Shown one piece after another: positions 15,301 through 55,087 of a DNA stretch of 64,000 nucleotides. This DNA is from an uncultured Clostridia bacterium (GTDB lineage: Bacteria; Bacillota; Clostridia; TANB77; CAG-508). The translations under genes and the position numbers were made by a program. Under the pieces are notes generated by a model. The model saw only the letters and a list, made by a program, of their open reading frames with translations, was not told the DNA's origin and ran no database searches. Within the stretch, counting starts at the first letter, position 1; every line of letters starts with the position of its first letter. The stretch spans positions 17,734 through 81,733 of the forward strand of contig CAKOVS010000003.1 in the NCBI GenBank assembly GCA_934122085.1, read 5' to 3'.

Positions 15301-15384
15301 TTTTGCAATCCTTTCTTTGACTTTTTTTCCTATTAGTGATATAATAAAGGTTGACCGAATTTTTTTAATTCTGGAGGGTTTTAT

Positions 15385-15564: not shown

Positions 15565-15574
15565 TTTTTGTTCA

Positions 15575-15610
15575 CTCCCAATCTTGCAGTGCGAGATTGG
15601 GAGCTTTTTT
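15575..15610 (+). terminator. Intrinsic terminator for the 59-aa ORF
   Basis: ctcccaatct-tgcagtgcg-agattgggag stem-loop followed by TTTTTT. Confidence 0.55.
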
Positions 15611-35695: not shown

Positions 35696-36670
35696 CTAAT
35701 TTTGATAATTAATATGCTCACCTTTTATTAATGGATATCTAATAAGACTCTCTCCATCTAAATTTTCTTTGTGCATATCAACTGCTGTAATTTGATGATT
35801 ATCATAAGTTGTATAATAATATATTCCTTTAGTTGCATTACAACATGATGTATAAATTGTAATTTCATATTTTCCATCATCTAATTGGCAACAACCTCTT
35901 TGCTGATCAACTGAATTAAGTATATGGAAAAATTGACTTACACTCTCATTTTCATCTTCACCAGATACAGAATTCATTTTTACAAATGCTACTCTAACAA
36001 ATCTTGATTGTGATGATAAATCCCCTGGAAGCCCTATTGCTCCCATTCCTCTACTATATTGTTGCAATTCTAGATTTTGTGCAAAAGAATTCTTTGATGA
36101 TTTGTTAGATAAATTCATATAATTATTTAAAGCAAATAATTGCTTATCAAATGGTGGATTATTTGTTAATACTCCTACTGGATTATCATATACTTTGATT
36201 CCATCTCTCACCGCTTCTACAGTTATAGACTCCTCTGAATCTGAAATAATCCAATGCAATTGTGCTAATGGTAATTGAGCACTAAATGGAACATTTAGTA
36301 AATTAATTTTTTCAATTAACCTTTTTGCTTCTTTTGTTGTAGCACATTGGCTTAAAATCCATGGAATAAATTCAAATTGTGCAATATTATCTTTTTCTTG
36401 TTGTGGTTCATTATAATGAGCATTACCAACAAAATTTAATCCTGCTATTCCTAATCCTTTTTCATTTATTGCATCATAATATAATGGATAATTATCAGCT
36501 ACATAAGCCATTCCTATTATTGCATAATGATTTGTTATTGATTCTTTATTTCTAAAATTAAATTGATAATTTCTTGGTGTTATTGCTATTTCTTCATTAT
36601 AAGAAAACTCATAATCTAATGTTCTCCCAAAATAGAAGTCTTTTGTTTTATATGTTGTTGCAGTACACAT
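35696..36670 (-). CDS. Ntn-hydrolase of the choloylglycine hydrolase / penicillin V acylase family
   Basis: MCTATTYKTKDFYFGRTLDYEFS: nucleophile Cys directly after the initiator Met; about 325 aa. Confidence 0.75.
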   Translation of the reverse strand: MCTATTYKTKDFYFGRTLDYEFSYNEEIAITPRNYQFNFRNKESITNHYAIIGMAYVADNYPLYYDAINEKGLGIAGLNFVGNAHYNEPQQEKDNIAQFEFIPWILSQCATTKEAKRLIEKINLLNVPFSAQLPLAQLHWIISDSEESITVEAVRDGIKVYDNPVGVLTNNPPFDKQLFALNNYMNLSNKSSKNSFAQNLELQQYSRGMGAIGLPGDLSSQSRFVRVAFVKMNSVSGEDENESVSQFFHILNSVDQQRGCCQLDDGKYEITIYTSCCNATKGIYYYTTYDNHQITAVDMHKENLDGESLIRYPLIKGEHINYQN

Positions 36671-36858
36671 ATTTCCTCCTTGTATAATATATTTTTTGGT
36701 TAAAGTCTCCCCCACATTCATATTATTTCTTAATTAAACTTTTTTATAATTATAACATTCTTTTTGTTTTTGTAAAATAAAATATTGTAAATTTTAGTAA
36801 CAAAAATAGATCTAATATTGTAATTAACTTACTGGATATTAGGTCTATTTTGCTTTTA

Positions 36859-37530
36859 TTATTTATTAAAATCATCAAACTCTAAATCATCAAATGGAAT
36901 ATTTTCAATTTCTTCTATTTCATTTTCGTCATTTAAAGTTAATTTAAATACTTCTGGTGAATTTATTCTTTTATCAAATACTACTTTGCCTTTAAAGCTT
37001 AATTTTAGTTCTCTATTGGGTGTTACTTTTTCTAATTTACACCATTTTAATAAGAAATACATTATTGCATAATCATGTGCAAATATTGCTATTCTTTTTC
37101 CTTTATTTTGACTAACAACTTCTTGGAATGCTTCATTTACTCTTTCTCTTACTTCAGCTTGGCTTTCTCCTCCTTCTGTTTTGAAATTTTCGTCTTCATA
37201 TTGTCTTGTATACCAATCTGGATATTCTTTATCATTTGGCTTTCCTACTCTTTTTTCATCAAATCTTTCATCTATATTTGCTTTTAAATGTTGTTTTTCT
37301 AATAGATACTTTGCTGTTTGTAATGTTCTTACACAATTGCTTGTATATACTACATCTATGTTTTGCAATTCTTCTTCATTGCTTAGTATTTCTGCTCTTT
37401 TTTCTCCTGTTACACTTAATATTATTTTTTCACTTCTTAATACTTTGTCTTGACTTGTTTTCCAACTTTCTATTACGTCTTTTGTATTGATTCTTACTGA
37501 GTGTCTTATTAAATATACTGTTGTTTTCAT
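36859..37530 (-). CDS. Histidine phosphatase (phosphoglycerate mutase-like) family protein
   Basis: N-terminal LIRHS catalytic motif, C-terminal AHDYAI histidine. Confidence 0.65.
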   Translation of the reverse strand: MKTTVYLIRHSVRINTKDVIESWKTSQDKVLRSEKIILSVTGEKRAEILSNEEELQNIDVVYTSNCVRTLQTAKYLLEKQHLKANIDERFDEKRVGKPNDKEYPDWYTRQYEDENFKTEGGESQAEVRERVNEAFQEVVSQNKGKRIAIFAHDYAIMYFLLKWCKLEKVTPNRELKLSFKGKVVFDKRINSPEVFKLTLNDENEIEEIENIPFDDLEFDDFNK

Positions 37531-37639
37531 GATATCATTGTATGAGATATTTAATACTTAAATACACCATACACTCCTTTCTTCATTTTTTATCGTTTTT
37601 ATTATATCTCAAATATATTATATTTTCAAGCAAAAATTA

Positions 37640-39103
37640 TTAAATGACTTCATTTAATAATACTCGTCCTCTTGAATCAAGTTTTACTAGCTGACTATTA
37701 ATTGCAATTGTTTGTAATTCTAACATCTTCTGCATTACTGTCTCCACACTAATATCAAATATTTGAGCTATTTTTTCTAATCCTTTTTCTCTGTTATCTA
37801 TCAATATATCTGAATATCTTTTTAATACTTCATAAAATTCTCTATGTTGATCTGTTATATCTTCACTACTTAATAATGTATCTGTATTACTATTTTCAAA
37901 TACGTCTTGTGGATTATATGTATTATCTTCAATTATATCTAGTAAATCAAAATAACCATCTGTTGTTTGTTGAATAAGACTTATTTCAAATTTATTTTTT
38001 GATAAATAATTAAACATTGCGTATTTTATGCCTTTCATAAGGACATTTATTACTAAATTTTGATCATAAGATAAATTGGTTTCAATTTTTCCACCATTCT
38101 CTATTAATTTTAAGTATACTTCTTGTTTTAAGTCTTCAAAATTGTTTAATCTTCCGTACATTTGAGCTATCACAATAGCCAATTTCTCAATTGTTTTATC
38201 TTTTGCAAAATATATTTTTTCGATTAATTCGTTACTTATTTGCTTTTGTTTTCCTAAATATATTTTTCCGTCTGAAATATTAAATACTTTTCGAGTTAAT
38301 TCTGGATTTTTCTTGTTTCCAATTATTTCTTTTATAAATGTATTTATTCCAATATTATATTCTTTACAAATATCCATTATCTCTTCTGTTGAATAATCTC
38401 TGTCTCCGAATTTGCTTAAATTTTCTATATCTATTTTCAATAAATCTGCTTTTACTTTATCTTTTTGTGAAATTTCTTTAAGTTTTACCTCTTTTCCATT
38501 TATTAATTCTCCATATTGTTTTTGATTAAGACCTAATGATTCTTTTATTTGATAGTCTGTATACCCTTTATCTTCTTTGGCTTTTTTCACTTCTTTAGGA
38601 GTTATAATCTTGTCATTTTTTATATCTTTTATTATATCATTTCTTATATTTATTTTATCTTGATAATCAAAAATCTTATTTTTTATTCTTTTTATTTTTC
38701 CATTCAATATCTTTATATATTTTTCTGCACTTATATCTAGTATTTTCATTAATCTAATATCGTCTGTTATATATTTTCTCATTTCTTTTATGTCTTCTGT
38801 AATTAAATATTCATTCTTTATATACTGTTTTAATATTTTTCGTTCTTCTGGCTTATATCTAATTCTATTATTATTTATGTTTGTACAAAGTCTACATATA
38901 AAATAACATTTTTCGCCTTTTCTTAATTTGGCATATGTATTTTTTGGGATTCCTAAACATTTTTTTAGTTCTTGTATAGTTATTCTTGTGTTTTCTAGTA
39001 TTTGATATATTGTTTCAGATGTTACTTTTTCTTCATCTTTTATCCTATAGTTTTGAATAATGTTTTCTAATACATACGATTTTCCATCCATTTTATTTTC
39101 CAT
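37640..39103 (-). CDS. Large protein with several HTH-like segments, possibly sigma-70-like C-terminus
   Basis: Repeated Kx-HTH-like stretches (TIQELKKCLGIPKNTYAKLRKGE; DISAEKYIKILNGK; LEKIAQIFDISVETVMQKMLEL); no firm family assignment. Confidence 0.3.
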   Translation of the reverse strand: MENKMDGKSYVLENIIQNYRIKDEEKVTSETIYQILENTRITIQELKKCLGIPKNTYAKLRKGEKCYFICRLCTNINNNRIRYKPEERKILKQYIKNEYLITEDIKEMRKYITDDIRLMKILDISAEKYIKILNGKIKRIKNKIFDYQDKINIRNDIIKDIKNDKIITPKEVKKAKEDKGYTDYQIKESLGLNQKQYGELINGKEVKLKEISQKDKVKADLLKIDIENLSKFGDRDYSTEEIMDICKEYNIGINTFIKEIIGNKKNPELTRKVFNISDGKIYLGKQKQISNELIEKIYFAKDKTIEKLAIVIAQMYGRLNNFEDLKQEVYLKLIENGGKIETNLSYDQNLVINVLMKGIKYAMFNYLSKNKFEISLIQQTTDGYFDLLDIIEDNTYNPQDVFENSNTDTLLSSEDITDQHREFYEVLKRYSDILIDNREKGLEKIAQIFDISVETVMQKMLELQTIAINSQLVKLDSRGRVLLNEVI

Positions 39104-39372
39104 TCCTTTCTTGCTTATCTAAATGCTACACATTATAAAGAAAGATTTTTTTTCAAACTATTTTCCTCTTTAAAATTCAAAAAGATACCTTTAGTTTTGT
39201 CTAAAAGTATCTCTTTTGATTTTCTTTTGGAATTTTTTTTATTTTAATTTAATTGCATTTTTATCTTATACTATTTATGTATAGTAGTCAATCATTGTTT
39301 TGTTTGTTTAATTTTTATGCTTTTTGTGTGTATTTTTTGTATTTATTGTATTGTTGTTAGCCAATTTATTTT

Positions 39373-39783
39373 TTATATTATTATTCCATTTGTATGATCT
39401 ATTTCATGTTGGATTATTTCTGCAATAAATCCATTATATTTTCCGTGTTGTTTATTGAAATTTATGTCCATATATTCTACTTCAATTTCTTTATATCTTT
39501 TGCATTTTCTTTCTCCGATTAATGATAGACATCCCTCTTCTGTTTGATATTCTTCTTTTTTATTTGTTATAATTGGATTTATCATTATAAAGTCATATAT
39601 TCCTCCTGATATACAGATTATTGCTTTATTATATCCTATCATGTTTGCTGCTAGCCCTACACATCTGTCTTTGTTTGCTTTTAGTGTGTCTAGCAGGTCT
39701 TGTGCTATATATTTGTCTTTTTCTGTTGCTTTTTCTGATTTTTGTGATAGGAACATTATGTCTTTTACTATGTTTTTTACCAT
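39373..39783 (-). CDS. def: Peptide deformylase (short form)
   Basis: Motifs GLAANMIG, EGCLS, HEIDH. Confidence 0.7.
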   Translation of the reverse strand: MVKNIVKDIMFLSQKSEKATEKDKYIAQDLLDTLKANKDRCVGLAANMIGYNKAIICISGGIYDFIMINPIITNKKEEYQTEEGCLSLIGERKCKRYKEIEVEYMDINFNKQHGKYNGFIAEIIQHEIDHTNGIII

Positions 39784-40482: not shown

Positions 40483-40795
40483 AGTTTTTCTCCTATTTTT
40501 TCTTTTTATTATAACACTTTTGGTGATAATTGGGAATAGTTTTTTGAACTGATTTGTTTGTTAGTTAAGCTTGTTTTATTATTTGTTTGAATAGAATTTA
40601 AGAATATAGGCCTTCGGGTTATGAGAATTTGATTGTGATTTTTGAGAAATTTTGTTAACTTGAGTTTTTATTAGTTTTAATAGGGTTAGAGCAAATTGGT
40701 AAGATTATGAAATCGGTTAAATTTTGTGGTTTTTTTGCAATGATTGTCCCAAATTTGTCCCCAAAAATTTTTAATAAAAATGGAGGTTTTTACAA

Positions 40796-41097
40796 TGAAA
40801 ATTTGTGATATTTTAAATAATAATGAAAGTGAAAATTTCTTAAAGGAATGGTTAGAATTTAGAGAAGAGAAATTATCTCGTATGGATGAAAATGATCAAA
40901 AGCATTTAATTAATTTTGATGATTATTCTGAAAATATTTTAAATAATGTTTCTAGTGAGAATTACAACTATTTTTCTAAAAAATTAGATTTTATCTATGA
41001 GGATTTTATGGAGTATTGTTCTTATTGGAATGATAAGTATTATATGAGTGGATTTAGTGATGCTATTAAGTTGATTGTTAGTGGGTTGAAGTTATAA
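40796..41097 (+). CDS. Acidic hypothetical protein
   Basis: GGAGG 8 nt upstream of ATG (MKICDIL...); followed by a strong terminator. Confidence 0.4.
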
Positions 41098-41109
41098 TTT
41101 AGTATAATA

Positions 41110-41158
41110 AAAAGTGTGAAAATGACTTTCTTAAGGAAATGTTATTTTTCGCACTTTT
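41110..41158. terminator. Bidirectional long-stem terminator
   Basis: aaaagtgtgaaaat ... atttttcgcactttt, 14-bp stem. Confidence 0.5.
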
Positions 41159-41189
41159 TACTATTATATATACATATGCTATAACGTTC

Positions 41190-42526
41190 TCAGCTTTTTC
41201 TAAATATTAAAGTAGTTTCTGTCTGAATTGAATAAACAGGTTTGTTATTTTTTAAACGTGAAATTTTAGATGCAATTCTTTTTGAAGGAATATTCCTATC
41301 AAAATCATAAATTCGTTTTAATTTTAGTGTAGATAATAATTCTGACAAAATTAAATCAAATCGAACTACTTCTCCATTTACTCTCCTATTTCCTATGGTA
41401 AAAATAGCATATTTATCTTTTTTTAGAACTCTTGATAATTCAACACAAGAATTATAAAAATCTATATAAAAACTAGCTACTTTTCTAGCTTTATTTTTTT
41501 CTCCTGCCTTAACTAACGCATCAAATGTTGATGATAATGTTTTAGATTTTTTTAATATATTTGAATTGTATATTACATCTATAGAATAATTTGTTCCTCC
41601 AAGACTTTCTTTGTCAATTTCTGTTAATGTTTTTAGTATTGAATTATCCATATTGCTTTTTATATCATTAATATCAATCCAACGTAAAGGTAAAATAGAA
41701 AATTGTCCGTAAGTCACAGTTGTATGATTATCTCCATACGGAGGTGATGTTACAATCAAATCAACTGAGCAATCTCTAAACTTTCGCTTATCACTCATAA
41801 CTTTAATTGTATCGCCAAGATAAACTCGAGTTTTATTCTTTATATTAAAAGCTCTATATAAATTATCAAAACTATTAATGTCTTTTTCTAATTGTTTACT
41901 GAAATTTTTTATACAATCATACTGGAAACTCTCAATAATATTTTGTTTTTTTATGTGTAATTTAAAAGTCGATTTTTGAGAATTATTAGCTAGTCTTACA
42001 ATTTCTGCAAAAGCAAGCCAAAAAACTCTTCTATATAAAATATCATTTTCTTGCATAATACAATATCTGATTCTACTTAGTTGATGAATTATGTCATCAT
42101 TAAACCATTTATTAATTCCATCAAATTTAAAATCTTTAACATTTCTTGTATTATTAATTAGATTTAACAATTTATCTGATTTAACTCTTAGAAGAGAAAT
42201 AGAAATCTTAGTTGTCCTAACTAAAGTCATTAAGTATGCTAAAGGATTTATGTCGATACCAATTGTATCTAAATTTCTACAAAGTCCCTCTATTAATATA
42301 GTTCCTGACCCCATATATGGATCAAAAATATTTTTTATGCTAGAATCATTTTGCAGTACAATATTTATAAGTTCTGCTTGCATATCTGGTACCATTTTAG
42401 CTGGGTAAGAGTGTGCATAGTAAATTGAGTCTTTAGAATTTAAATTTTTAAAGTCCCAATAGGTTTCTTCTTCTTGCTTTTTTTTCTTAATATAATTTAT
42501 TATATTTTTATCAGCTAAATTCATAA
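41190..42526 (-). CDS. Orphan DNA methyltransferase (amino-MTase, N6-adenine/N4-cytosine)
   Basis: Motif I DPYMGSGTILIEG and motif IV VTSPPYGDNHTT; no cognate REase adjacent; start MNLADKN after GGAGG. Confidence 0.75.
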
Positions 42527-42645
42527 CATACCTCCTCTGTTTATAATAATACAATAAAAAATAAAAAATGTAAATTAATTTCATAAATTTGTAAAAAAAA
42601 TATATACATGATATAATAAGACAAATAATAAAAATGGAGGAAGTT

Positions 42646-45036
42646 ATGGATAAAACAAAATTATTAAACTTATCTATTTCTACAAGAATTATTTCTCAAT
42701 TAGGAGAACAACTTATATCAGACGAATTAGTGGCACTTATGGAATTAATTAAAAATGCATATGATGCGGATGCAACTAAAGTTACAATAAAGGTTGATAC
42801 AAAAGCTGAAACATCACACGGTATTGGAATGATAAAGATAGAAGATAACGGAAATGGAATGACACCATCTATTATTGAAAATAGTTTTTTAAGAATATCT
42901 ACAGGATTTAAGGAAGAATATAAAATTTCACCTTACTTTAAAAGACTAGTTCTTGGAAAAAAAGGTTTAGGAAGATTAGCCTTTAATAGATTAGGAAAAT
43001 ATATAAATGTATATACTACTCCTAGAGTAGACAGAATCAGTGATGAGTTAGTAGGCAATTTAGAGGGATTTAACGAGTTCAAACTTTTTGTTGATTGGGA
43101 GAGTTTATATGTAGATCAAGATTTTAATAAAATACAGGCAACCTTAGAAAGGCATATTAATCCAGAACCAACTTATGGAACGAAAATACAAATTTTAGGA
43201 ATTAAAAATACAAATTTCTGGAAGTTGGATAAAACTCAAAGGCAAAGATTAAAAAATGAAATATTTGGAATGATAAATCCTTTTACCAAGAACAAGGAAA
43301 GTAGATTCGAAATATATTTATATATTGATGGTGAGAAGTTTACCACAGAAGAACTAGATGAAGATTTAATTAGAAAAATAAGTGATGTTAGCGCTAACTT
43401 TAATCTAAATTCAAATTGGATATTATCTTTAGATATAAATAGAAAAGAAAAATATATTAATAATAGAATTGTAAGTACTAAAAAGAATAGAGAAAATGCA
43501 TCAACTAAATTAGTTTTACAGGAAAAAAATATTGATCCTAAAATATATAATATCCATTATGAAATTGACTTAAAAAACTCAAAAGAAATAAGAAGCATAC
43601 TTCCAAAAGTTGGAGATATTACATTTAGTACCAAAAATAATGAATTATGTTTTCCAGGAATTTTAAGTGGGGCTATTTATGCTACTGACTTAGGAAATAA
43701 AAAAGAAATTATAAAAAATCTAAATGCTGATAATATTAAAACAAATAGTGATTTTGATAATTTGTGGGAGCAAGCAAATGGAATATTTGTATTTAGAAAT
43801 GAATTTAGAATACTACCATATGGAAAAAATGATTGGTTAGATTTTACAAAAATGAGTCAAAGATTAAAAAGTAATATTTATAAAGAGCATACTATAGCTG
43901 GCTATATTAATTTAGATGGTGAAACTAGTGAAAACTTAGAAGAACAAACTAATAGGCAAGGATTTATTGAAGATGAATATGGAAACAACTTCTTTAAAAT
44001 TATTAAAGATATAATTGCTGTTACTTTGGTTAATGAAGACATTAAATTAAGAGATGGATTTGACTTAAAAACAAAAGAGGAAAAAGGATTTTTATACTCT
44101 AAAAATAATATGATAAAGTATAAAATGGAAATTTCGCAAGAGAAACAAAAAGAAAATAAGAAGGAAGAATTAAAAATATCAATCAATAATTTAAAGGCTA
44201 ATACAAGTAATATTGCTGAAATAGAAAATATATCACATATAACTGATGAGTTCTTTAAATTAGATTCAAAGGTGGAAAAAAAGAATGAACAAGAAAGGGA
44301 AATTTTACAAAGGCAAATAGATGAAATAAAAGAAATTGCCCCAATGGTTGGTCAAGCAATTATAATCGAGTCAATGACTCATGAATTAAATAGAATAGAA
44401 GGAAATATTAAGCAATATTCAAAAAATAGTTTAGATATTGCTTATGAGTTGGATGATACTTTTAATGGTAAAAATAAGTTAATTAATAATCAACATTCTA
44501 TTATAGATGAGACTGTATTTATGAGGGCACAATTAAATCATTTAGAGCCTACATACAGAAGTCAAAAAAATACTGTGGAAAATATAGATATCAAAAAACT
44601 TTTAGAGGAATCTTATAAAACTGATGGTCCTATGGCAATAAAAGCAAAAAATAGCAATATTGATGTACAAATATCAGGAAAAAATTTTACTATAAAAGCA
44701 AATAGAGGATATATTATTACTATATTTGATAATTTATTTTTAAATTCATTACATTGGATTAATTATGAGGAAGTTAATAAAAAAGAAATATTAATACACA
44801 TAGATGAAAAAGGTTATATTTATTTTTGGGATACAGGAAATGGAATTCATCCAGATATAGAAGATTCTTTATTTAATCCTTTTACTACAATGAAGAAAAA
44901 TGGAAGAGGTTTAGGTTTATATATAGTAACTGAATTACTAAGTCAAATGAATTCAACGATTGAACTAGATGAAGATAGAAAAAACGGAAGATTATACAAA
45001 TTTAAGATTAATTTAAGTAATTTATTGGAGGATTAG
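42646..45036 (+). CDS. Cytoplasmic fusion protein: N-terminal GHKL (HATPase_c_3, MORC/MutL-like) ATPase + C-terminal histidine kinase core (HisKA + HATPase_c)
   Basis: N-terminus LMELIKNAYDADATKV...IEDNGNGM...GKKGLGRLAF (Bergerat fold); C-terminus H-box MTHELNRIEGNI, N-box FDNLFLNSLHW, G1 DTGNGI, G2 GRGLGLYI; no TM segments; GGAGG RBS. Confidence 0.6.
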   Translation: MDKTKLLNLSISTRIISQLGEQLISDELVALMELIKNAYDADATKVTIKVDTKAETSHGIGMIKIEDNGNGMTPSIIENSFLRISTGFKEEYKISPYFKRLVLGKKGLGRLAFNRLGKYINVYTTPRVDRISDELVGNLEGFNEFKLFVDWESLYVDQDFNKIQATLERHINPEPTYGTKIQILGIKNTNFWKLDKTQRQRLKNEIFGMINPFTKNKESRFEIYLYIDGEKFTTEELDEDLIRKISDVSANFNLNSNWILSLDINRKEKYINNRIVSTKKNRENASTKLVLQEKNIDPKIYNIHYEIDLKNSKEIRSILPKVGDITFSTKNNELCFPGILSGAIYATDLGNKKEIIKNLNADNIKTNSDFDNLWEQANGIFVFRNEFRILPYGKNDWLDFTKMSQRLKSNIYKEHTIAGYINLDGETSENLEEQTNRQGFIEDEYGNNFFKIIKDIIAVTLVNEDIKLRDGFDLKTKEEKGFLYSKNNMIKYKMEISQEKQKENKKEELKISINNLKANTSNIAEIENISHITDEFFKLDSKVEKKNEQEREILQRQIDEIKEIAPMVGQAIIIESMTHELNRIEGNIKQYSKNSLDIAYELDDTFNGKNKLINNQHSIIDETVFMRAQLNHLEPTYRSQKNTVENIDIKKLLEESYKTDGPMAIKAKNSNIDVQISGKNFTIKANRGYIITIFDNLFLNSLHWINYEEVNKKEILIHIDEKGYIYFWDTGNGIHPDIEDSLFNPFTTMKKNGRGLGLYIVTELLSQMNSTIELDEDRKNGRLYKFKINLSNLLED

Positions 45037-46869
45037 ATGGAAAACGAAAATATAGAACAAATTAAACAAAAATTAGCATTTATGAATATTAATAAAATAA
45101 TCTCTATAGATAATGAATGGTCTCAAAATAATAATATAGACTTAAGCAAAGATATAATAGATTTTATCGAAGAACTACATCCAAAAAATGAGAAAGAACT
45201 CTTACGTAAAATATCTAATAAAGGCTACTTAACTTTAAAAAATGCATATGATGATAATGATGAAGAATTAATAAAACTGATAAATTCAAAAAATGATATG
45301 CAAAATCAATTACCACCCCATTTAGAAAAATTAGATAAAATTTTAGAAGCATTACAATTAAAAGGAATAGCTGTAGATAAAATAGATAAATACAAACCAT
45401 CTATTTTCCAAAAGTATAATACGGAAAATTGTCTTTTTATTCTTGATAAGGAAATGGATGAAGTTAGTAATAAAGATATTATTAAAGAAAGTATTCCAAA
45501 TATAATAGAAGAATCGGATAAAAATGGTGTAAATCATTTAATAATTGTATATTCAAGTAATATAAGCGATGAATATGTAAATAACTCAAAAAAATTAGCC
45601 TATGTACAACAAAGAATAACATCTCCTGGAAAGAGTAATTTTTATATTTATAAAATGTTTGCAATAGAAAAAAATCTAGATACAAAATTGGATCAAGAGC
45701 TAAATTCAAAAATATCAGATTGTATTTATGGTGATGCTTTATATCACTATATGGTATTAGAAAAGAGCAAAACAGATAAAATTTATGATTCAATTTGTGA
45801 AATAGATAATGAGGAAATATCAAGAATATCAGAGGAGAATTTTATAGAAGGAAATAATATTACTGATAGTATTAATACTATCAAAAAGGCTATAACAAAA
45901 ATGCATGAAAATGAACAATTTGATAAAGAAAAAAATATACTAGAAAAATTTAATTTTTATCAAAAAGATAAAATCAAAAATTTCGTTTCACATAATAGTA
46001 CATTAACAACAAATAGTCAATATAGAAAATATCGTGAATCTCAGGATATAGAATTTGTAGAAAATATATTGCAAAGCAATATATCAATTTGGGAAAATAT
46101 AGATTATTCTGTTAACAAATTTTATAAAGACATATCTACAGGAGATATATTTAAAACAAAATTACTAAAAGAGAATAAAGAACAATATCTACTAATTATA
46201 GAAAATGCGTGCGATTGTATACTTCGAAGTCAAAAAAATATAAATGATATATCAAGAAAAAATAAAACTGGAAGTATAAAGGTATTATTATTAGAAAAAT
46301 ATGATATAATAGAATCAGAGAAAAAACAAATAGCTAAACAATTTGGCAATGGAGAAATTATTTTTCCTATAAAAGAACATAAAACTTATTATTTAAAGAA
46401 CACTGGAAAAGTTTTTTCAATTCCAGAATTTTTATTAGATTTATGTACCCTAAACGAAAAAGGTAAATGTTTAACAAATTATAGTAAGGAAATAATACAA
46501 AAATATAAAAATTATTATTTTGAAAAGTATATGGACATGCCACAAACAATTGAAAAGATAGAAAATTTCAAAAAATATTTACTAATAGATAATTCCCATA
46601 TAAAGAAAGGATTAGAATTGCAAGAAGAATCAGAAGAAAATATTATAAAACCATTTCAAATAGAGAAAGATAAAGATGGAAATCCATGTATGGAACGAAT
46701 AGGAAGATTAGACTATAATATTACTTTAAGAGTATGTCAGAAAAACTACTATGAAATAGAAAAACAAATATTTAATACATTTGAGAGTCAAGGAATTCTT
46801 AATAAATTGAAAGGACAACAAAAAACTACAATTGCTTCTATAGAAAAAATATTTGGAATAAAAAAGTGA
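45037..46869 (+). CDS. 610-aa hypothetical protein, likely translationally coupled to the upstream GHKL-kinase gene
   Basis: Start codon overlaps the upstream stop (GATTAGATGG); no recognisable motifs; Cys pair CDC...C. Confidence 0.4.
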   Translation: MENENIEQIKQKLAFMNINKIISIDNEWSQNNNIDLSKDIIDFIEELHPKNEKELLRKISNKGYLTLKNAYDDNDEELIKLINSKNDMQNQLPPHLEKLDKILEALQLKGIAVDKIDKYKPSIFQKYNTENCLFILDKEMDEVSNKDIIKESIPNIIEESDKNGVNHLIIVYSSNISDEYVNNSKKLAYVQQRITSPGKSNFYIYKMFAIEKNLDTKLDQELNSKISDCIYGDALYHYMVLEKSKTDKIYDSICEIDNEEISRISEENFIEGNNITDSINTIKKAITKMHENEQFDKEKNILEKFNFYQKDKIKNFVSHNSTLTTNSQYRKYRESQDIEFVENILQSNISIWENIDYSVNKFYKDISTGDIFKTKLLKENKEQYLLIIENACDCILRSQKNINDISRKNKTGSIKVLLLEKYDIIESEKKQIAKQFGNGEIIFPIKEHKTYYLKNTGKVFSIPEFLLDLCTLNEKGKCLTNYSKEIIQKYKNYYFEKYMDMPQTIEKIENFKKYLLIDNSHIKKGLELQEESEENIIKPFQIEKDKDGNPCMERIGRLDYNITLRVCQKNYYEIEKQIFNTFESQGILNKLKGQQKTTIASIEKIFGIKK

Positions 46870-46954
46870 TTTTTACTTGTTTTTTTAAGCGAACTAATAT
46901 GAAGTGAACCCAAATTATTAGACAAAAAAGTTTAATAAGGAGGGTTCATTTTCT

Positions 46955-47467
46955 ATGTCAAAATATTCAAATGAGTTAAAATTAAAAGTTGCAAAATATT
47001 GTGTAGAACAATATCATGGATATTCAGATGCAGCAAAATATTTTAATATTCCAAGCGAGACTACAGTATATCAATGGGTTAGGAGATATAAAGAAAAAGG
47101 AGTAGCAGGATTATTAAAAAACAAAAAAACTTCATATAGTGGAGAATTTAAACAAGATGTGGTAGAATATATGCATAAAAACCATTTATCAGCAACAGAA
47201 ACAGCTATAAAATTTAATTTAGCCAATCATACTATAGTATTAAAATGGGAACGTATATATTATGAGGAAGGGCCACAAGCATTGTTTAGAGAACGACGTG
47301 GTAGAAATAAAAATATGAGTTCTAAACCAAGAAAAAAGAAATTATCTAAAGAAAATAAAGAAGATTTAATAGAAGAAGTTCAAAGATTAAGAATGGAAAA
47401 TGCATACTTAAAAAAATTGCAAGCCTTAATTCAGGAAAGGACAAAGCCAAAACAAGAGAAAAAGTAA
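46955..47467 (+). CDS. IS3-family transposase OrfA (HTH + leucine zipper)
   Basis: HTH N-terminus, LRMENAYLKKLQALIQE zipper. Confidence 0.8.
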   Translation: MSKYSNELKLKVAKYCVEQYHGYSDAAKYFNIPSETTVYQWVRRYKEKGVAGLLKNKKTSYSGEFKQDVVEYMHKNHLSATETAIKFNLANHTIVLKWERIYYEEGPQALFRERRGRNKNMSSKPRKKKLSKENKEDLIEEVQRLRMENAYLKKLQALIQERTKPKQEKK

Positions 47468-47508
47468 TAGTAATAGATGAATTAAGGCATGAATTTAAAT
47501 TAGAGACT

Positions 47509-48312
47509 TTGTTAAAGTTTGCAGAAGTAAAAAGGAGTACTTTTTATTATCAATTAAATAGAATGCAAGTACCAGATAAATACAAAGAAATAAAAGAACA
47601 AATAACATCTATATATCACGAAAATAAAGGAAGATATGGTTATAGAAGAATTACATTAGAACTTCATAATAGAGGATTTATAATTAACCACAAAACAGTT
47701 ATAAGATTAATGAGAGATTTAGGATTACAATGTTTTATTAGAGTTCAAAAATATAAATCTTATAAAGGTGAAATAGGAAAAATATGTGATAATCTTCTAA
47801 ATAGAGAATTTGAAGCTGAAGAACCAAATCAAAAATGGGTTACAGATGTAACAGAATTTAAAGTACATAACGAAAAACTGTATTTATCACCTATAGTAGA
47901 TTTATTTAATGGAGAAGTAATTAGTTTTAACTTATCAAGACATCCGGTATTCGCACAAGTAGTAGATATGTTAGAAAAAGCTTTTAATAAAATACCAGAT
48001 AATACAAATTTGATATTACATTCAGATCAAGGATGGCAGTATCAGATGAAGCAATATCAACACTTATTAAAAGAAAAAGGCATTAGGCAAAGTATGTCAA
48101 GAAAAGGTAATTGTTTAGATAATTCATTAGCAGAGAATTTCTTTGGTTTATTAAAATCAGAATTATTTTATATGAAAGATTATAAAACGATAGAAGAATT
48201 AGAAAAAGATATAATAGAATATATAGATTATTATAATAATAAAAGGATAAAAGGCAAACTAAAAGGAATGAGCCCTGTTCAATACAGAACTCACTCCTTA
48301 GAAGTTGCTTAG
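47509..48312 (+). CDS. IS3-family transposase OrfB (DDE integrase core)
   Basis: ...VSRSTFYY-like start, DDE residues (VTDVTEF ... HSDQGWQY ... NSLAENFF); open -1 frame extends back to the A7 slip site. Confidence 0.8.
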   Translation: MLKFAEVKRSTFYYQLNRMQVPDKYKEIKEQITSIYHENKGRYGYRRITLELHNRGFIINHKTVIRLMRDLGLQCFIRVQKYKSYKGEIGKICDNLLNREFEAEEPNQKWVTDVTEFKVHNEKLYLSPIVDLFNGEVISFNLSRHPVFAQVVDMLEKAFNKIPDNTNLILHSDQGWQYQMKQYQHLLKEKGIRQSMSRKGNCLDNSLAENFFGLLKSELFYMKDYKTIEELEKDIIEYIDYYNNKRIKGKLKGMSPVQYRTHSLEVA

Positions 48313-48398
48313 TACCTAATCAAAAAATGTCCAATTTTTTGGGTTCAGTACATAACTCGCCTTTTTATATAAGAAATAACTACTGTAATTTTTCACAT

Positions 48399-50162
48399 CT
48401 AATTATTTTCTAAATCAAATATTAGTTTTTTTAAATCAATAATATAGATTGGCGTTGCTTGATTTGAATAATTTAAAATATAATTAGTTTCTGGTAATAT
48501 CATTTCATTTTCTTTGAACAAATTAGATTTATTAATTGTTGTTAAAGATATATCTGCTTTATTCATTTCTTGAATATCTGTATCATTCACGTCCCAACAA
48601 ACAATGTAATCTATTTCATTTGCATATTTTTCGTTGTTTTCAAAATCTCTAATTATATTTCTTAGATGTGATTTAAATTCTATGCATATAAAATGATTAT
48701 TATATTCTGCATAAAGATCATACTTTTCTCTATATCCTGATATTATTGGTTTAACCTTATCTATTTTTCCCATTCCTACAAGTTCATAAAAAATTGCTGC
48801 TACACTTGCCTCTTGCTCAGATGGTAATTTTTTAAAATTAATTATTGAATTATTTAATGCTGGCAAACTATCAATTTTCATTTTTATTTCATCTCTATCC
48901 CAAATTGGATTATTGTCTATATCTGGTTCTCCTGCAACATACTTTGAAATGTATTTTGTATAATCACTAAATATTTCTTTTGCATATTTTTTATAAATAT
49001 TTTTGATACTTCCATTTATTGATTTTCTTCCTATATCAAATTTTAGCATATCATCTTCAAAAATCATAAATAAATTTGGCCAATATCCAGTTTTACCTGT
49101 AAGTGGAGGCTCGATTATAATTCCTGTTGGCATTCCTTTTACTGATGTGTATATCCCTGATTGATGTGTTGTGAAAAATTTATCTTGTAAAATGTCTTCA
49201 TTGTCTATATCATTTTCATCTAATAATCCATCTTTGCACGAAATCTTTTTCCATAATGTTCTTTGTGGTACATAACATGTCCAAAATTTTATTGTTCTCA
49301 CATTGTTATGTTTATATTCACCCATTTTATATATAATTTTATTTTTTAATTTATTTCTTTTTTCCTGATCTGATGATGTTGGATTTTCTTTTAGCCATTT
49401 TTTAAAAACTTCTAAATCAAACAAATCCTTTTTTTCCAAACTTTCTGTAGGTATCCAATATTTATATTCCAATTTTTCTTCCTTGGTATTTTCAGCTAAA
49501 TCAGTATATATCAATGTAACATCAATATTTGAATTATTATCAAATAAGTTCAAAACATTTCCAATAGCAGTTTTAGTCCTTATTACATACTTTATAGAAT
49601 TAAAATCTAATTCAAATAATTGCTGATTTTCAATCCCTTCAACACATATATCTGTTCCTATGAATCCTTCTTTATTTTCTGAAGATAAATTTAAGCAAAA
49701 ATCTTCATCACTATCACTATTCTTCCATGTTTTTGCTCCAGGTATTTTTACTACAAATTTTTCAGTAGATTTATCAGTTGTTGTCTTCATAATAAAATTG
49801 TCACTCGAAAACAAAACAAATTTTAGTCCTACTCCTTTTTCTCCAATTGTTTCTTTATCATCTTCTTTATCAGTAGAAAATGGTGTTAATAAAACTGGTA
49901 TTTTTTCCTTTTCTATCCCTATTCCCGTATCAATAACTTGTATTGATCTTTTATGAGCATTAATAATTATTTTTATGCTCCCCTTTCTTTCTTCCGTTTT
50001 ATTAATTGCATCTACACTATTTTGAACCAATTCAGCAATTATATCCCAAAAGTTATTATAGCTATCTTCTATCCCCTTTATGCTTTTCCTTATAATAAAG
50101 TTATTAGGCATTAAAAATGGTATTTTTTCAGTATCCATAATATTTACTATTTCCCCTTTCAA
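48399..50162 (-). CDS. MORC-like GHKL ATPase with C-terminal restriction-endonuclease-fold (DUF3883-like) domain
   Basis: ELVQNSVDAI ... IDTGIGI ... GEKGVGLKF Bergerat motifs; C-terminal D...(ICIEFK) PD-(D/E)xK-like pattern. Confidence 0.6.
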   Translation of the reverse strand: MKGEIVNIMDTEKIPFLMPNNFIIRKSIKGIEDSYNNFWDIIAELVQNSVDAINKTEERKGSIKIIINAHKRSIQVIDTGIGIEKEKIPVLLTPFSTDKEDDKETIGEKGVGLKFVLFSSDNFIMKTTTDKSTEKFVVKIPGAKTWKNSDSDEDFCLNLSSENKEGFIGTDICVEGIENQQLFELDFNSIKYVIRTKTAIGNVLNLFDNNSNIDVTLIYTDLAENTKEEKLEYKYWIPTESLEKKDLFDLEVFKKWLKENPTSSDQEKRNKLKNKIIYKMGEYKHNNVRTIKFWTCYVPQRTLWKKISCKDGLLDENDIDNEDILQDKFFTTHQSGIYTSVKGMPTGIIIEPPLTGKTGYWPNLFMIFEDDMLKFDIGRKSINGSIKNIYKKYAKEIFSDYTKYISKYVAGEPDIDNNPIWDRDEIKMKIDSLPALNNSIINFKKLPSEQEASVAAIFYELVGMGKIDKVKPIISGYREKYDLYAEYNNHFICIEFKSHLRNIIRDFENNEKYANEIDYIVCWDVNDTDIQEMNKADISLTTINKSNLFKENEMILPETNYILNYSNQATPIYIIDLKKLIFDLENN

Positions 50163-50173
50163 TTTCGTTTATT

Positions 50174-51568
50174 TCAATTTTCTATCAAATAATAATCTTT
50201 TAAATCCTTTTCAGATATATCCAATCCTTTTTCATGTAATAATTCTTTTCTTTTTAAATATAGATTGTGCAATGCTGGTTTCCTTTCAACATCTTCGCCT
50301 AAGTGTACTAATCTATGACAATGTGGACACAATGTTACATAATTTTCAACAACTTCTATGCTATTTTCAAAATCATTTCCAACTGCTCTAGGAATCAAAT
50401 GGTGTACTTCCACATAATTTTTATGTGATTCTTTGCTTGTAAAATATTGACATCCATAAAAATCTTCCAGCTCACATCTGTAGTTACTATTAACTTTAGC
50501 AAGTTTTTTCAATACAGTACTTACTCTGTTGTATTTTTCAACTGCATACATATCAGTATCGTCTATTTTTTCATTTAAGTCTACATCTTGTTCATTAACT
50601 TCTTTTTCATCTCTAAAGTTTAAAGAATACTGTATGATATCAAATAATTCTTCATATATAAGTTTGTACACTGCTTCATGATCTGCTATAAAACTTTTTA
50701 TTTTCTCTATATCAATATTTATATATATTTCATTATATCTGAATAGTGCATAATCTATAAAATCTTCATAGTTTTTATATGAATTGTTTAGTAAAATAAG
50801 AGAAAAATATTGTATTTTCGCATTATCAACTAATGTGGATTTTACATATGAACCTGTTGATTTATATTTATATGATATTGTACATGTTTCTTCTTTTGTA
50901 ATTTCTCTATTTCTAGGTCGACTTTGCACATATTCTTTTAATTCTTTCTTTTCAGCATCGCTTGCATTAATAAACATTTGTAAAAAATCAATGTCTTCAA
51001 AATCTTTATAAAAGGAATCAAAGTATAAGTAATCATTCATAAATATTTCTTCTGTACCAATATCGCAACTATCAATAAAGTTTTTTAAGATACTTATATA
51101 TTTTTCTTTACTTACACCTCTTTTTTCCATAAAGTTTACAATTTCATTGCTTCTTACATCTATATAATTAGGAATATTAGCAAAATATCCATTTAGAATT
51201 GTTAAATATATAAGTATCCAACGCTCTTCTTTTGAAAAATCACTATCTAACATATCACCAAAGGCTAATCCTTTTTTATTTCTATAATATTTGTTTGATG
51301 CCCTAGAAAAAATTTTTGATTTTAACATATTAACTGTATGCTGTTTTTCTTTTTCTTCCCCATGATTTTCATGATGAATCCATTGGTCTCTTCCTATATT
51401 TTCAATTTCTTTAAAAACATCATAACCTGTCTCAAATACCCATAAATTTCTATAATTTGTATTTAAAAAATATAGTATTTTTCCATTTGAATTTTCACCT
51501 GTAGAACAATAAGCATCATACCATCTATTATTTCTACATAAATCTTTATATATATCTACTAAATTCAT
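50174..51568 (-). CDS. HNH nuclease-domain protein (paralog 1)
   Basis: C-terminus CELEDFYGCQYF...HHLIPRAVGNDFENSIEVVENYVTLCPHCHRLVH = HNH with two Cys pairs. Confidence 0.7.
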   Translation of the reverse strand: MNLVDIYKDLCRNNRWYDAYCSTGENSNGKILYFLNTNYRNLWVFETGYDVFKEIENIGRDQWIHHENHGEEKEKQHTVNMLKSKIFSRASNKYYRNKKGLAFGDMLDSDFSKEERWILIYLTILNGYFANIPNYIDVRSNEIVNFMEKRGVSKEKYISILKNFIDSCDIGTEEIFMNDYLYFDSFYKDFEDIDFLQMFINASDAEKKELKEYVQSRPRNREITKEETCTISYKYKSTGSYVKSTLVDNAKIQYFSLILLNNSYKNYEDFIDYALFRYNEIYINIDIEKIKSFIADHEAVYKLIYEELFDIIQYSLNFRDEKEVNEQDVDLNEKIDDTDMYAVEKYNRVSTVLKKLAKVNSNYRCELEDFYGCQYFTSKESHKNYVEVHHLIPRAVGNDFENSIEVVENYVTLCPHCHRLVHLGEDVERKPALHNLYLKRKELLHEKGLDISEKDLKDYYLIEN

Positions 51569-51643
51569 CTTTTTTCCCCCGTTAATATTGTATCATACAT
51601 TATATAAAAAATAAATAAAAGAGGAAAATGTTTCCCCTTTTAT

Positions 51644-53107
51644 TTATTCTTCAATATTATAATAATCTTTTAATTCTTTAAGCTTTATATTAATCCCTTT
51701 TGACACTAATTGTTCTTTTCTCTTTGAAAATAAATATTCAATATCTCTTACTCTATCTTCGTCTTTTGCATGATGCAGCCTTCTGTGGCAATTAGGACAT
51801 AACGCAACAAGGTTAGCAATAACATCTATACTATTTTCGAAATCATTACTGAATTCCATTTGTACAAGATGATGTGCTTCTAAGAAATTTTTATTAGATG
51901 CTTTTGATGTGAAATATTGACATTTATTTCTATCACCTAGTTCGCAAAGATATCCTGATCTTCTTTTAGCAGTTTCCTTTTTTAATGAACTGCTTTTGCA
52001 TTTTTTTATTTCTTCAAATTCGTTTTCTCCTATATCAGTTCTTGGTTCTGGGCCTTCAACCTCTGAAAACGAATTGATTTCATTTTCGCTAATTACATCT
52101 TCTATATTATTTTCTTTACTAATGTTTAACACATTATAATATATATCTTGAAATATATCTCTATTACCATCTATAATACTTCTTACCAAAGCTCTATTAT
52201 AATTTTCTATTTTCTCATAACTCTCTAAAATAATATCTATAAAATTATTAAATGAAACCTCTCCAATATTTCTTAAATTTTCAGAAATATACAATGTTTT
52301 AGCATCATCTATCAACATGTTTTTATCGTAATTTCCTTGATTAGGAATTTTCTGGAATTTTTTAGCTATTATACATTGATTTTCTTTTTCTCCATTGTTC
52401 CAATTAAATCTTATATACGAATATAATTCCATTTTTTCTTCAGCAGAAGCTTTAATATATTCTGGTATAAAATTTATACTATATCCTTTTTTATTATATG
52501 GTTTAAAAAAAGATTCAAAATATACAAAATCATATTTTAATAATTCTTCAAAATCTCTATCTTGGCTTTCAATTATTTTTTTTGCTGTTTCTATAATTAT
52601 ATCTTCTGTTAATCCCTGCTCTATTAAAGTATCGATAATTTCAAAACTTTTATTTATAATGTAATTTACTTTAACATCAAAATATGCATCTAATAAAAGA
52701 ATATATGATAAAATCCATATATCTTTTTCTTTTAAGTCTCTATTATTTAATATTTTTTCTATAAATAATCCTTTAGGATTAGGAAAATATAAATCTTCCT
52801 CATCTACATTTTTTCTGTTAAATATTTTTGCTTGTCTCATTCTAGTTGTATATATTTTATGTTGTTTTTGTTTATATGAACTATTTTTAGGCCATTCGCT
52901 ACTTTTTAATCCTGCAACAGATTTGAATTTTTTATAATCATTAATAAAACTTATATTATATCTAAAATTTGTGTTTCTAAACCAATATACGTTTCCTAAT
53001 GGTTTAATTCCTAGTCCTTTTATTTTTTTTGTAGTTCCACACCTTGAATACAAACTATAAATTTTAGAATCTTCAGACATTTTTTTATAATATTCCAAAA
53101 TAGTCAT
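51644..53107 (-). CDS. HNH nuclease-domain protein (paralog 2)
   Basis: CELGDRNKCQYF...HHLVQMEFSNDFENSIDVIANLVALCPNCHRRLHH; N-terminal region also homologous to paralog 1. Confidence 0.7.
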   Translation of the reverse strand: MTILEYYKKMSEDSKIYSLYSRCGTTKKIKGLGIKPLGNVYWFRNTNFRYNISFINDYKKFKSVAGLKSSEWPKNSSYKQKQHKIYTTRMRQAKIFNRKNVDEEDLYFPNPKGLFIEKILNNRDLKEKDIWILSYILLLDAYFDVKVNYIINKSFEIIDTLIEQGLTEDIIIETAKKIIESQDRDFEELLKYDFVYFESFFKPYNKKGYSINFIPEYIKASAEEKMELYSYIRFNWNNGEKENQCIIAKKFQKIPNQGNYDKNMLIDDAKTLYISENLRNIGEVSFNNFIDIILESYEKIENYNRALVRSIIDGNRDIFQDIYYNVLNISKENNIEDVISENEINSFSEVEGPEPRTDIGENEFEEIKKCKSSSLKKETAKRRSGYLCELGDRNKCQYFTSKASNKNFLEAHHLVQMEFSNDFENSIDVIANLVALCPNCHRRLHHAKDEDRVRDIEYLFSKRKEQLVSKGINIKLKELKDYYNIEE

Positions 53108-53110
53108 AAA

Positions 53111-54130
53111 TTATTCCTCCACCTTACAAACAAATAATCTTTCTTTATGTTTGTCTAAATTTGTTTTTCCTGAATTAAAAAATTTATAATCTGTTTCATA
53201 AACGCTTACTTTTCCCTTTTTTTCAAGTATTTGCATCATATCATTATATGTTATTGAATTTACAGATGATGTACTTTTTGCTTCATATGTGTTATTATAT
53301 GATACAATAATATATTTAGCATTAATATTTTCTATCAAATCTGTGAACACTGTTTTTGCATTTGCCTTACAGTATTCACTCATTATATTTTTTCTTTCCA
53401 TTTTTTTGGCTTTATTATATACTTTTGGTTTTTTCCATTGTGCAACATTTTCTAATAAATGATAAAAATTAGCATATTGTCTAGCATTATATGGCGGATC
53501 TATATACATTACATCTACTTTTATTTTTCTAACTAAACTATTAGCATCTTCATTATAAATATGCGAATTTGAATTATATAATTTAATATTTAAATTACTT
53601 ATTTGTAAGTTCTTATATTCAGGTTCTTTATTTAAAAAACTTTCATAGTGACCCACTGTATTAGATATTCTATCCATTGAATATAATAAACATGATATTA
53701 AAATATAGTATTCTCTATCATTAATTTCTTTATTTAAATATCTATTTTCAATATCTTCCCTAACATATCCAATTTTTTTAGCATCTTTATAATGATAATA
53801 ATTTCCACTAAAGTTATCAGAAAAATAATTATCCTGTATTTTTTCAACATCTATTCTATTATAGTCATCTATAATTTTTATAATTTTTTCTTCCTCATAT
53901 TTTTCGTTACTTAACAATGCTTTATATATAACAAAATTTGAGAACAATAAATCATTAACGTATATTTCTTTGCCTTTATTCAAAAAGTATTCTGCAACAA
54001 CTCCTGTCCCTGAAAACACATCTCCAAAGGTACAGAATCTTATTTTCTCTTTTTTTATGGTATCATCTATAAATTTTAAAAGTTTACTTTTATTTCCTAT
54101 ATATCTTCTATTTTCTATATTTAGTCCCAA
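53111..54130 (-). CDS. Dam-like (D12 class) N6-adenine DNA methyltransferase
   Basis: YIGNKSKLL ... FGDVFSGTGVV (motif I) ... MYIDPPYNA (motif IV). Confidence 0.8.
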   Translation of the reverse strand: MGLNIENRRYIGNKSKLLKFIDDTIKKEKIRFCTFGDVFSGTGVVAEYFLNKGKEIYVNDLLFSNFVIYKALLSNEKYEEEKIIKIIDDYNRIDVEKIQDNYFSDNFSGNYYHYKDAKKIGYVREDIENRYLNKEINDREYYILISCLLYSMDRISNTVGHYESFLNKEPEYKNLQISNLNIKLYNSNSHIYNEDANSLVRKIKVDVMYIDPPYNARQYANFYHLLENVAQWKKPKVYNKAKKMERKNIMSEYCKANAKTVFTDLIENINAKYIIVSYNNTYEAKSTSSVNSITYNDMMQILEKKGKVSVYETDYKFFNSGKTNLDKHKERLFVCKVEE

Positions 54131-54132
54131 CT

Positions 54133-55086: not shown

Positions 55087-55087
55087 A

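Follow-up and report, generated by a model that had tools for sequence, protein, structure and literature searches.

We identified in a 64,000-nucleotide stretch of genomic DNA from an uncultured Clostridia bacterium (GCA_934122085.1, contig CAKOVS010000003.1, positions 17,734 to 81,733; hereafter, the window) a cassette of three genes that encode a DNA methyltransferase (MTase), a soluble MORC-like ATPase/histidine-kinase fusion and a protein with a receiver (REC) domain. As judged from sequence alone, the cassette is a widespread relative of Ambrosia, an anti-phage system of Pseudomonas aeruginosa validated in a 2025 preprint (bioRxiv 10.1101/2025.09.30.679545). Ambrosia comprises an XRE regulator (AbrR), an N6 MTase (AbrA), a HATPase_c_3/HATPase_c kinase of 747 amino acids (aa) (AbrB), a 209-aa REC protein (AbrC) and an HNH nuclease (AbrD), and its defense is abolished by each of the substitutions AbrB N40A, AbrC D60A, AbrA T72A and AbrD H60A (10.1101/2025.09.30.679545). 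The best explanation for the window genes, to which we assign a probability of about 0.55, is a horizontally mobile, restriction-modification (R-M)-like and phosphorelay-gated defense module that carries its effector fused to the receiver and would represent a compact relative of Ambrosia.

Domains of the kinase fusion and its partner

The open reading frame (ORF) of the kinase fusion spans positions 42634-45036, and the ATG at 42646, preceded by GGAGGAAG as the ribosome-binding site (RBS), gives a protein of 796 aa (42646..45036, forward strand), as called in public assemblies. Pfam places HATPase_c_3 at residues 29-127 (E 9e-18) and HATPase_c at residues 691-789 (E 1e-20). Residues ~530-790 align, H-box included, to the cores of FixL, AtoS, PrsK, ThkA and other kinases in NCBIfam and among PDB sequences, and the catalytic (CA) domain of ThkA in the PDB matches the C-terminus at 1.2e-6. 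These matches, together with the conserved boxes described below, bear out an earlier sequence-only reading of this DNA, which had joined a MORC/MutL-type ATPase to a complete histidine-kinase core, and they include the C-terminal fold that it had marked for checking by profile searches. The lack of membrane segments that it had noted also held, as the maximum 19-residue Kyte-Doolittle hydropathy is 0.88 in the kinase and 0.52 in the partner. Both ORFs are real and the length of 610 aa for the partner stood, while the kinase counts 796 aa where 797 had been given. The two genes abut (TAG|ATG at 45034-45039) rather than overlap, as had been stated.

From the N-terminus, the fusion begins with a GHKL ATP-binding domain of MORC/MutL type (residues 1-200, 42646..43245), assigned from Pfam and NCBIfam matches. 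The ATP-site residues E33, N37, D40, D67xGxG71 and G104xKGxGR110 of this domain are invariant in 79 relatives, and so is R437 in the motif (E/D)QTNR(Q/E)G (EQTNR437QG in the window), which could act as a gamma-phosphate sensor by likeness to the GyrB QTK loop. The middle alpha/beta region (residues ~201-500, 43246..44145) aligns at its start with the S5-like transducer of MORC/MutL ATPase modules and carries the family motif FRxxFRILPYG..DW; no conserved acidic nuclease motif was found in it across the 79 relatives. A long coiled coil is followed by the DHp helical hairpin (residues ~501-640, 44146..44565), which bears the H-box, MTH579ELNRI in the fusion versus HELNQ in kinase cores, with His579 (codon 44380-44382) followed by E580. 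The CA domain (residues ~641-796, 44566..45036, with the TAG stop at 45034-45036) completes the protein. The N box (N696/N700), the G1 box (D729xGxG733) and the G2 box (G753RGLGL) are invariant or nearly so among the same relatives, the invariant residues being H579, N696, N700, D729, G731, G755 and G757. The structural model of the fusion is closest to MORC3, SMCHD1 and MutL.

Using Ambrosia sequences from Table S1 of the preprint, we compared the window kinase with residues 1-399 of AbrB. The two proteins match by BLASTP (E 3e-22), with N37 aligned to AbrB N40, and have in common the motifs ELxKNAYDADA, FRVxPYG..DWL and QTNREG. The match to an AbrB homologue of P. fluorescens (locus L086) extends over nearly the full length (E 1e-34); this is a true Ambrosia locus, with matches to AbrA (2e-64), AbrC (3.5e-23) and AbrD (2e-37). 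As a separate observation, sequences of phage origin also match the fusion. The PHROGs family phrog_6203 matches its N-terminal 280 residues, two unannotated human-faecal 'Bacteriophage sp.' contigs (MT838277.1 and MT837790.1) encode partial relatives (26-30% identity over 40-54% of the query), and Yersinia phage P37 (MT239398.1) has a match of ~80 residues to the GHKL N-terminus.

The partner gene (45037..46869, forward strand) encodes a protein of 610 aa that as a whole has no match in Pfam, NCBIfam, PADLOC, PHROGs or PDB sequences. We modeled the protein with AlphaFold2 on 17 homologues (predicted local distance difference test, pLDDT, 84; predicted template-modeling score, pTM, 0.75). The N-terminal third models as a REC fold, and the partner is thus, on the strength of the model, the predicted response regulator of the kinase fusion. 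A (beta-alpha)5 domain spans residues ~20-215, interrupted by a helical insert of ~65 residues after beta1 and before beta2 (domain residues 1-215, 45037..45681), and the strand ends display the receiver signature: D25-N26 at beta1, D137 at beta3, S173 at beta4 and K212 at beta5. D137 (codon 45445-45447) is the predicted phospho-acceptor. Among 65 partners from related loci, 61 retain D25, 63 retain D137 and 60 retain K212; the S173 position is variable, with Ser or Thr in 30. Two of these 65 proteins match Pfam Response_reg (best E 2.7e-8), and a single one matches Response_reg_2 (2e-4). Hence, the residues expected of a two-component phosphorelay are present on both sides, as the H, N, G1 and G2 boxes of the kinase and as the acidic pocket, Asp and Lys of the REC domain, with structural matches in agreement. 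The search for a cryptic receiver that the sequence-only reading had advised was therefore positive. Its view of a partner without recognizable motifs holds for the library searches and fails for the modeled receiver with its conserved D/D/K, and the response regulator that it had missed nearby is the partner itself.

The receiver is followed by an all-helical linker (residues ~216-353, 45682..46095) with a conserved pair, E271-G272, delineated from the AlphaFold2 secondary structure and from conservation, and by a C-terminal domain conserved in ~200 homologues (residues ~354-610, 46096..46869), which we presume to be the output or effector domain. Residues ~354-595 are of mixed beta/alpha structure and rich in strongly conserved polar positions, arranged in the motifs D356-Y-x-x-N360, G369-D370-x-F, Q/N390-x-C392-D393-x3-R397, R407, L-D468-L-C470, G476 and R554-x-x-R557. 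Conservation across the 65 partners is highest for G369 (64/65) and C392 (63/65), with D370 at 59/65 and R554 at 58/65. A profile search of 1.8 billion representative proteins retrieved 171 relatives, some of which carry the C-terminal domain behind other N-terminal regions; 10 proteins of this kind had no Pfam match. The domain itself has no match in Pfam, PADLOC or NCBIfam, nor among PDB sequences by profile, and a Foldseek search against the PDB gave no significant match (best, a response regulator, E 0.025). No similarity was detected between the partner C-terminus and the HNH nuclease AbrD. The cassette thus defines a conserved domain of ~240 aa, with D, C and R among its conserved residues, that has no fold relatives in the searches made. 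Its target is most likely DNA, on which it would work as a nuclease or another enzyme directed at DNA. Some readings of the motifs, made from sequence only, were dropped: a PD-(D/E)xK nuclease (a Cys stands at the expected Lys position), a caspase-like QxC enzyme (no conserved His) and a CX5R phosphatase loop (the spacing here is CX4R).

Gene linkage, distribution and mobility

The MTase gene (41190..42524, reverse strand) encodes a DNA amino-methyltransferase of 444 aa and is transcribed divergently from the kinase operon; the previously given span, 41190-42526, is not a whole number of codons. The protein matches Pfam N6_N4_Mtase (E 5.5e-14) and PADLOC MTase_II (5e-77), and carries motif I (FDPYMGSGT) and motif IV (TSPPY) of enzymes targeting N6-adenine or N4-cytosine. 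A divergent intergenic region of 121 bp (42525..42645) separates the two transcription units and holds the kinase RBS and, at 42589-42617, a promoter-like site of the extended -10 type. Promoter-like matches are not significant in the AT-rich window (62 found vs. 51 expected), and the scan for promoters and terminators is uninformative at its GC content of ~25%.

We identified 521 relatives of the kinase in a scan of one genome per species and drew the neighborhood counts from the best 80, spread over Bacillota, Bacteroidota, Actinomycetota, Pseudomonadota, Acidobacteriota, Omnitrophota and several lineages of archaea. Of the 74 loci with enough sequence, 64 have an ORF of 350 aa or more tightly coupled to the kinase on its 3' side, which answers the gene-neighborhood check proposed earlier in favor of co-conservation, and the downstream proteins of related loci have in common the REC triad and the GD...C motif. 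Upstream neighbors (n = 63) include 44 with N6_N4_Mtase, 5 with C5 DNA_methylase, 4 with N6_Mtase, 3 with Eco57I and 10 with D12 domains, in counts that partly overlap. A fourth conserved gene, whether a nuclease, a helicase or a regulator, was not found around 60+ loci, and the largest cluster of flanking genes comprises 5 loci. The MTase, the kinase fusion and the REC partner therefore form a unit of three genes that is conserved in archaea and across bacterial phyla, and the MTase belongs to it rather than standing as an orphan beside a pair, as had been thought. The exchange of MTase families around a constant kinase and partner is a pattern typical of modification-dependent self/non-self systems.

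Apart from the six sibling contigs, the trio was recovered from a JGI contig, from Tissierella carlieri and from a Bacillus cereus plasmid. In the JGI contig and T. carlieri, a kinase of 40-46% identity lies between an N6_N4 MTase and a partner homologue of 601-633 aa. Plasmids of ~0.5 Mb from B. cereus and B. thuringiensis carry the trio as well, and in the B. cereus plasmid NZ_CP042875.1 (343175-349373, locus L090) the order is kinase, partner, MTase. RefSeq and other public records name the three products 'ATP-binding protein', 'hypothetical protein' and 'DNA methyltransferase', and a cluster look-up returned no names other than 'hypothetical protein'.

Kinases and partners fall into two size classes that co-vary (loci L034-L087; for example, L042, L044, L050 and L066): the larger kinases (~815-870 aa) occur with partners of ~550-640 aa, and the smaller ones (~740-750 aa) with partners of ~400-440 aa. 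The profile derived from the window partner matches partners of ~550-670 aa over their whole length. The ~400-440-aa partners keep the REC triad and the GD...C...R motifs, but much of the intervening region is missing from them; of the ~400-aa class, about half match the window-derived profile, only across the C-terminal motifs. Short partners of 164-262 aa are found in L067, L073, L076, L086 and L088, of which L086 is Ambrosia-type.

An identical kinase protein is encoded on many contigs from human-gut metagenomes. By BLASTN, the block that the window has in common with the sibling contigs covers positions ~40600-46900 at 99.4% identity. This block, with a 100-aa ORF, the MTase, the kinase and the partner, is constant in the six sibling contigs, with left flanks that vary from contig to contig and do not match that of the window. 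The constancy of the block amid differing flanks therefore identifies a mobile cassette of ~6.3 kb; the sequence-only view of a defense-type cassette is likewise supported. The right flank is common to all six siblings and differs from that of the window: in L001-L006 (~14375-16590) the neighbors are a 618-aa SLFN-g3 helicase-type protein and a MazG-like protein. In some sibling contigs two C5 MTases and a phage integrase then follow, a defense-island or integrative-element context that is not in the window, and the sibling loci also hold AAA_15/21 and Abi_alpha genes. The 100-aa ORF (40795..41097, forward strand) is convergent with the MTase gene, lies inside the 99.4%-identical block and was called in 6/6 sibling contigs. 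It has no Pfam match and no helix-turn-helix (HTH) or XRE match, and is possibly an accessory or regulatory gene; a regulator, an anti-toxin and an unrelated passenger are all candidate roles.

In the window, the partner gene is followed by an IS3-family element (~46900-48352), as the sequence-only reading had it, with 27-nt imperfect terminal inverted repeats at 46898-46924 and 48328-48354. Its ORFs are orfA (46955-47467), with an HTH, and orfB (47509-48312), with an rve integrase core. The element starts exactly at the point where the window ceases to resemble the sibling contigs, so the differing right-hand junction in the window genome may have arisen through it. Directly beyond it lies a second GHKL-based, R-M-like block (48399-55116, minus strand), composed of a HATPase_c_3 protein of 587 aa (48399-50162), two large proteins with HNH domains (50174-51568 and 51644-53107) and a pair of Dam-like MTases of the D12 class (53111-54130 and 54133-55116). 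This second block resembles the paraMORC1 plus HNH operons of Iyer et al. 2008 (PMC2292703), and PADLOC TmtA models match its GHKL protein weakly. On the left (35696-39783), a gene of the choloylglycine (bile-salt) hydrolase family, a histidine phosphatase and a peptide deformylase give the flank the look of an ordinary chromosome, consistent with a gut Bacillota host and with a cassette at the edge of an island.

Proposed mechanism and rival explanations

From the domain identities, the conservation of key residues, the gene linkage, the mobility of the block, the homology of the kinase and the defense-rich neighborhoods, we infer a defense pathway in five steps. The MORC/MutL-like GHKL-transducer module would serve as an ATP-dependent sensor that, by analogy, probably dimerizes or clamps on DNA, and the signal would be invading or inappropriately (un)modified DNA. 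The sensor would control the autophosphorylation of His579 by the C-terminal kinase domain, and the phosphoryl group would then pass to Asp137 of the partner REC domain. Phosphorylation could release or activate the C-terminal domain of the partner, which would stand in for the AbrC tail and the AbrD HNH nuclease of Ambrosia. The MTase would supply an epigenetic mark of self and non-self or, as proposed for Ambrosia, mark DNA for attack. If true, the cassette would represent the simplest and most widely distributed version of a recently glimpsed defense strategy, in which a classical His-Asp phosphorelay, instead of second messengers or direct protein contacts, connects a MORC-like DNA sensor to an effector. 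It would also be a tractable bacterial system in which to learn what prokaryotic MORC/paraMORC ATPases sense, a question that dates from 2008 and bears on eukaryotic MORC gene silencing. We further propose, tentatively and with the odds somewhat against it, that the REC-fused domain (~354-595; Asp370, Cys392, Arg397, Arg554) may be a new class of phospho-activated effector enzyme. In that case the three genes would amount to a self-contained system of 'phosphorelay-gated restriction': a MORC-like clamp on DNA would drive the His-Asp relay, and the relay would license the attack on DNA. Such a system would be found in hundreds of bacterial and archaeal species, be far wider in distribution than Ambrosia and be missing from present defense catalogues.

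Several observations weigh against a phosphorelay-gated defense module. The role in defense is extrapolated from a homologue at ~25% identity, and the model of the kinase fusion is of moderate confidence (pLDDT 77, pTM 0.57). The profile of the partner aligns weakly with AbrC by hhalign (E 0.026), with D137 in register with AbrC D60, and its hhalign comparison with the AbrC-like protein of L086 was likewise not significant or weak. Neither the window kinase nor the partner matches Pfam PF19191 (HEF_HK) or PF19192 (Response_reg_2), respectively, at E <= 10. The putative effector role of the C-terminal domain is deduced from its position, its enzyme-like conserved D/C/R residues and the absence of another candidate effector, and the profile, Foldseek and AbrD comparisons detected no similarity to any nuclease or other enzyme. 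Pre-methylation of phage by AbrA gives the phage no protection (10.1101/2025.09.30.679545), so the role of the MTase may not be classical self-protection. Finally, the authors of the Ambrosia study favor transcriptional control by the kinase/REC pair (10.1101/2025.09.30.679545).

This last point leads to the rival that survives best, although we consider it unlikely: a purely regulatory two-component system, in which the phosphorylated partner would bind DNA and switch on the MTase or unlinked restriction genes. Control of R-M systems by such a pair has been the subject of speculation (Bellieny-Rabelo et al., PMC8011034). In Ambrosia, infection induces reporters placed at abrA and abrD, and the authors describe AbrC as a REC plus winged HTH (wHTH) protein (10.1101/2025.09.30.679545); in the window, the promoter region from which the MTase gene and the kinase operon diverge could serve as a regulatory target. 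Against this, no HTH or wHTH domain was detected in the window partner or its 65 relatives, and the conserved Asp, Cys and several Arg of the C-terminal domain look catalytic or ligand-binding, unlike a DNA-reading helix. The conserved unit has no separate nuclease gene to control, and the occurrence of the C-terminal domain with other N-termini is reminiscent of exchangeable effector modules. We rate regulation lower than gated defense because a DNA-binding domain is not detectable in the partner and the unit has no other effector gene.

Still less probable is a role outside immunity, such as epigenetic or DNA-maintenance signaling (of methylation state or replication stress, for example) or an addiction module of a mobile element. 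MORC and MutL relatives do work in chromatin compaction and repair, and a mobile cassette could behave selfishly, like R-M systems do. The homologous Ambrosia, however, blocks phage replication and requires every component to do so (10.1101/2025.09.30.679545), and the sporadic spread across phyla and the defense-island neighborhoods are typical of immunity genes. An ordinary Type II R-M system, with the 796-aa protein as the endonuclease and the 610-aa protein as an accessory or specificity subunit, is very improbable: the N-terminus of the kinase does match the BbrUII/HgiDII restriction-enzyme N-terminus of NCBIfam (NF050001, E 1.6e-21) and, as its only PADLOC match, the REase_II model PDLC03419 (2.9e-10, and in 46 of 62 relatives), and an MTase is adjacent in most loci, but the BbrUII/HgiDII resemblance is confined to the GHKL domain (positions 2-209 of 659, at 76 bits vs. 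a cutoff of 550) and what follows includes a kinase core whose phospho-His is invariant, with no conserved acidic nuclease motif found in the middle region across the 79 relatives.

Relation to known systems

The phosphorelay-gated cassette that we favor can be set against several described systems. It was not detected with PADLOC-DB v2.0.0, whose models (Detocs, Mza, Lamassu, BREX and others) gave no significant full-length match of the kinase or the partner to a system model; on the relatives, PADLOC gave scattered weak matches to MzaB (4), PDC-M43B (3) and PDC-M60B/C (2). MADS was rejected as a candidate, being an operon of 8 genes with other mandatory components. Detocs is a two-component-like anti-phage system that follows a His-Asp phosphorelay logic, has its receiver fused to an effector, and is not known to have a MORC-like module or an MTase. 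The window cassette resembles it in the use of a His-Asp relay for a defense role and in the fusion of the receiver to a presumed effector, and differs from it in having no Hpt or other phosphotransfer protein; PADLOC found no Detocs match for the kinase or the partner. With the BbrUII/HgiDII enzymes, the kinase has in common a homologous N-terminal GHKL domain, the remainder being a kinase.

Contrary to the sequence-only reading, the architecture is not new, and the window pair belongs to a lineage that includes Ambrosia, the HEF_HK-Response_reg_2 pairs and the paraMORC proteins of R-M operons. Prokaryotic MORC and paraMORC GHKL+S5 ATPases were described as components of R-M operons by Iyer, Abhiman & Aravind 2008 (PMC2292703). 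The features of this group are all present in the window: a GHKL domain and then an S5-like transducer, intact ATP-binding motifs and a context of R-M genes, with DNA methylases encoded alongside on mobile islands. The described families differ in that they pair with helicases or with PD-(D/E)xK, HNH or TIR domains, and a fusion to a histidine-kinase core with a REC partner is not among them. A computational study by Bellieny-Rabelo, Pretorius & Moleleki 2021 then described a soluble protein with HATPase_c_3, 'HEF_HK' and HATPase_c domains, linked in 91.6% of 644 regions to a 'Response_reg_2' protein that has no other domain, and with an MTase upstream (PMC8011034). The authors proposed a paraMORC ancestry for this set; their work was purely computational and silent on the C-terminal domain of the partner (PMC8011034). 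The window proteins have an identical architecture: HATPase_c_3, a DHp-like H-box and HATPase_c in a soluble protein, with a REC-like protein and an MTase adjacent. The published set is mostly proteobacterial with C5-cytosine MTases, whereas the relatives of the window genes have mostly N6_N4 MTases. The lack of PF19191 and PF19192 matches in the window extends to its relatives, as 0/62 kinases match PF19191 at E <= 0.001 and 1/65 partners match PF19192. By that criterion, the window family is therefore a sister group of the same design and not a member of the published one.

The closest comparison is with Ambrosia. Both systems encode together an MTase, a soluble HATPase_c_3...HATPase_c kinase and a REC protein, and their kinases share the GHKL Asn, the FRxxPYG..DW and QTNR motifs, the H-box and the CA boxes. 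Unlike Ambrosia, the window cassette has no XRE regulator (AbrR, HipB-like) and no HNH nuclease gene (AbrD) within the 6.3-kb block; the HNH genes at 50174-53107 are beyond the IS3 element and part of the other block, and of 89 loci only L086 had AbrD homologues. The window MTase is divergently transcribed and of the N6_N4_Mtase/SPPY type, whereas AbrA is of the N6_Mtase (N6_Mtase/MmeI_Mtase type)/NPPF kind, and the two align (BLASTP E 0.04) only across the S-adenosylmethionine (AdoMet) motif. The REC protein of the window, at 610 aa, carries an unrelated extension of ~390 aa compared to the 209-aa AbrC. Ambrosia-type loci account for 1 of the 80 nearest relatives (L086), and the three-gene type is far more widely distributed. 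Thus, the new part is the compact variant with a REC-fused domain lacking a family match, which appears to be the commonest and broadest form among the loci sampled.

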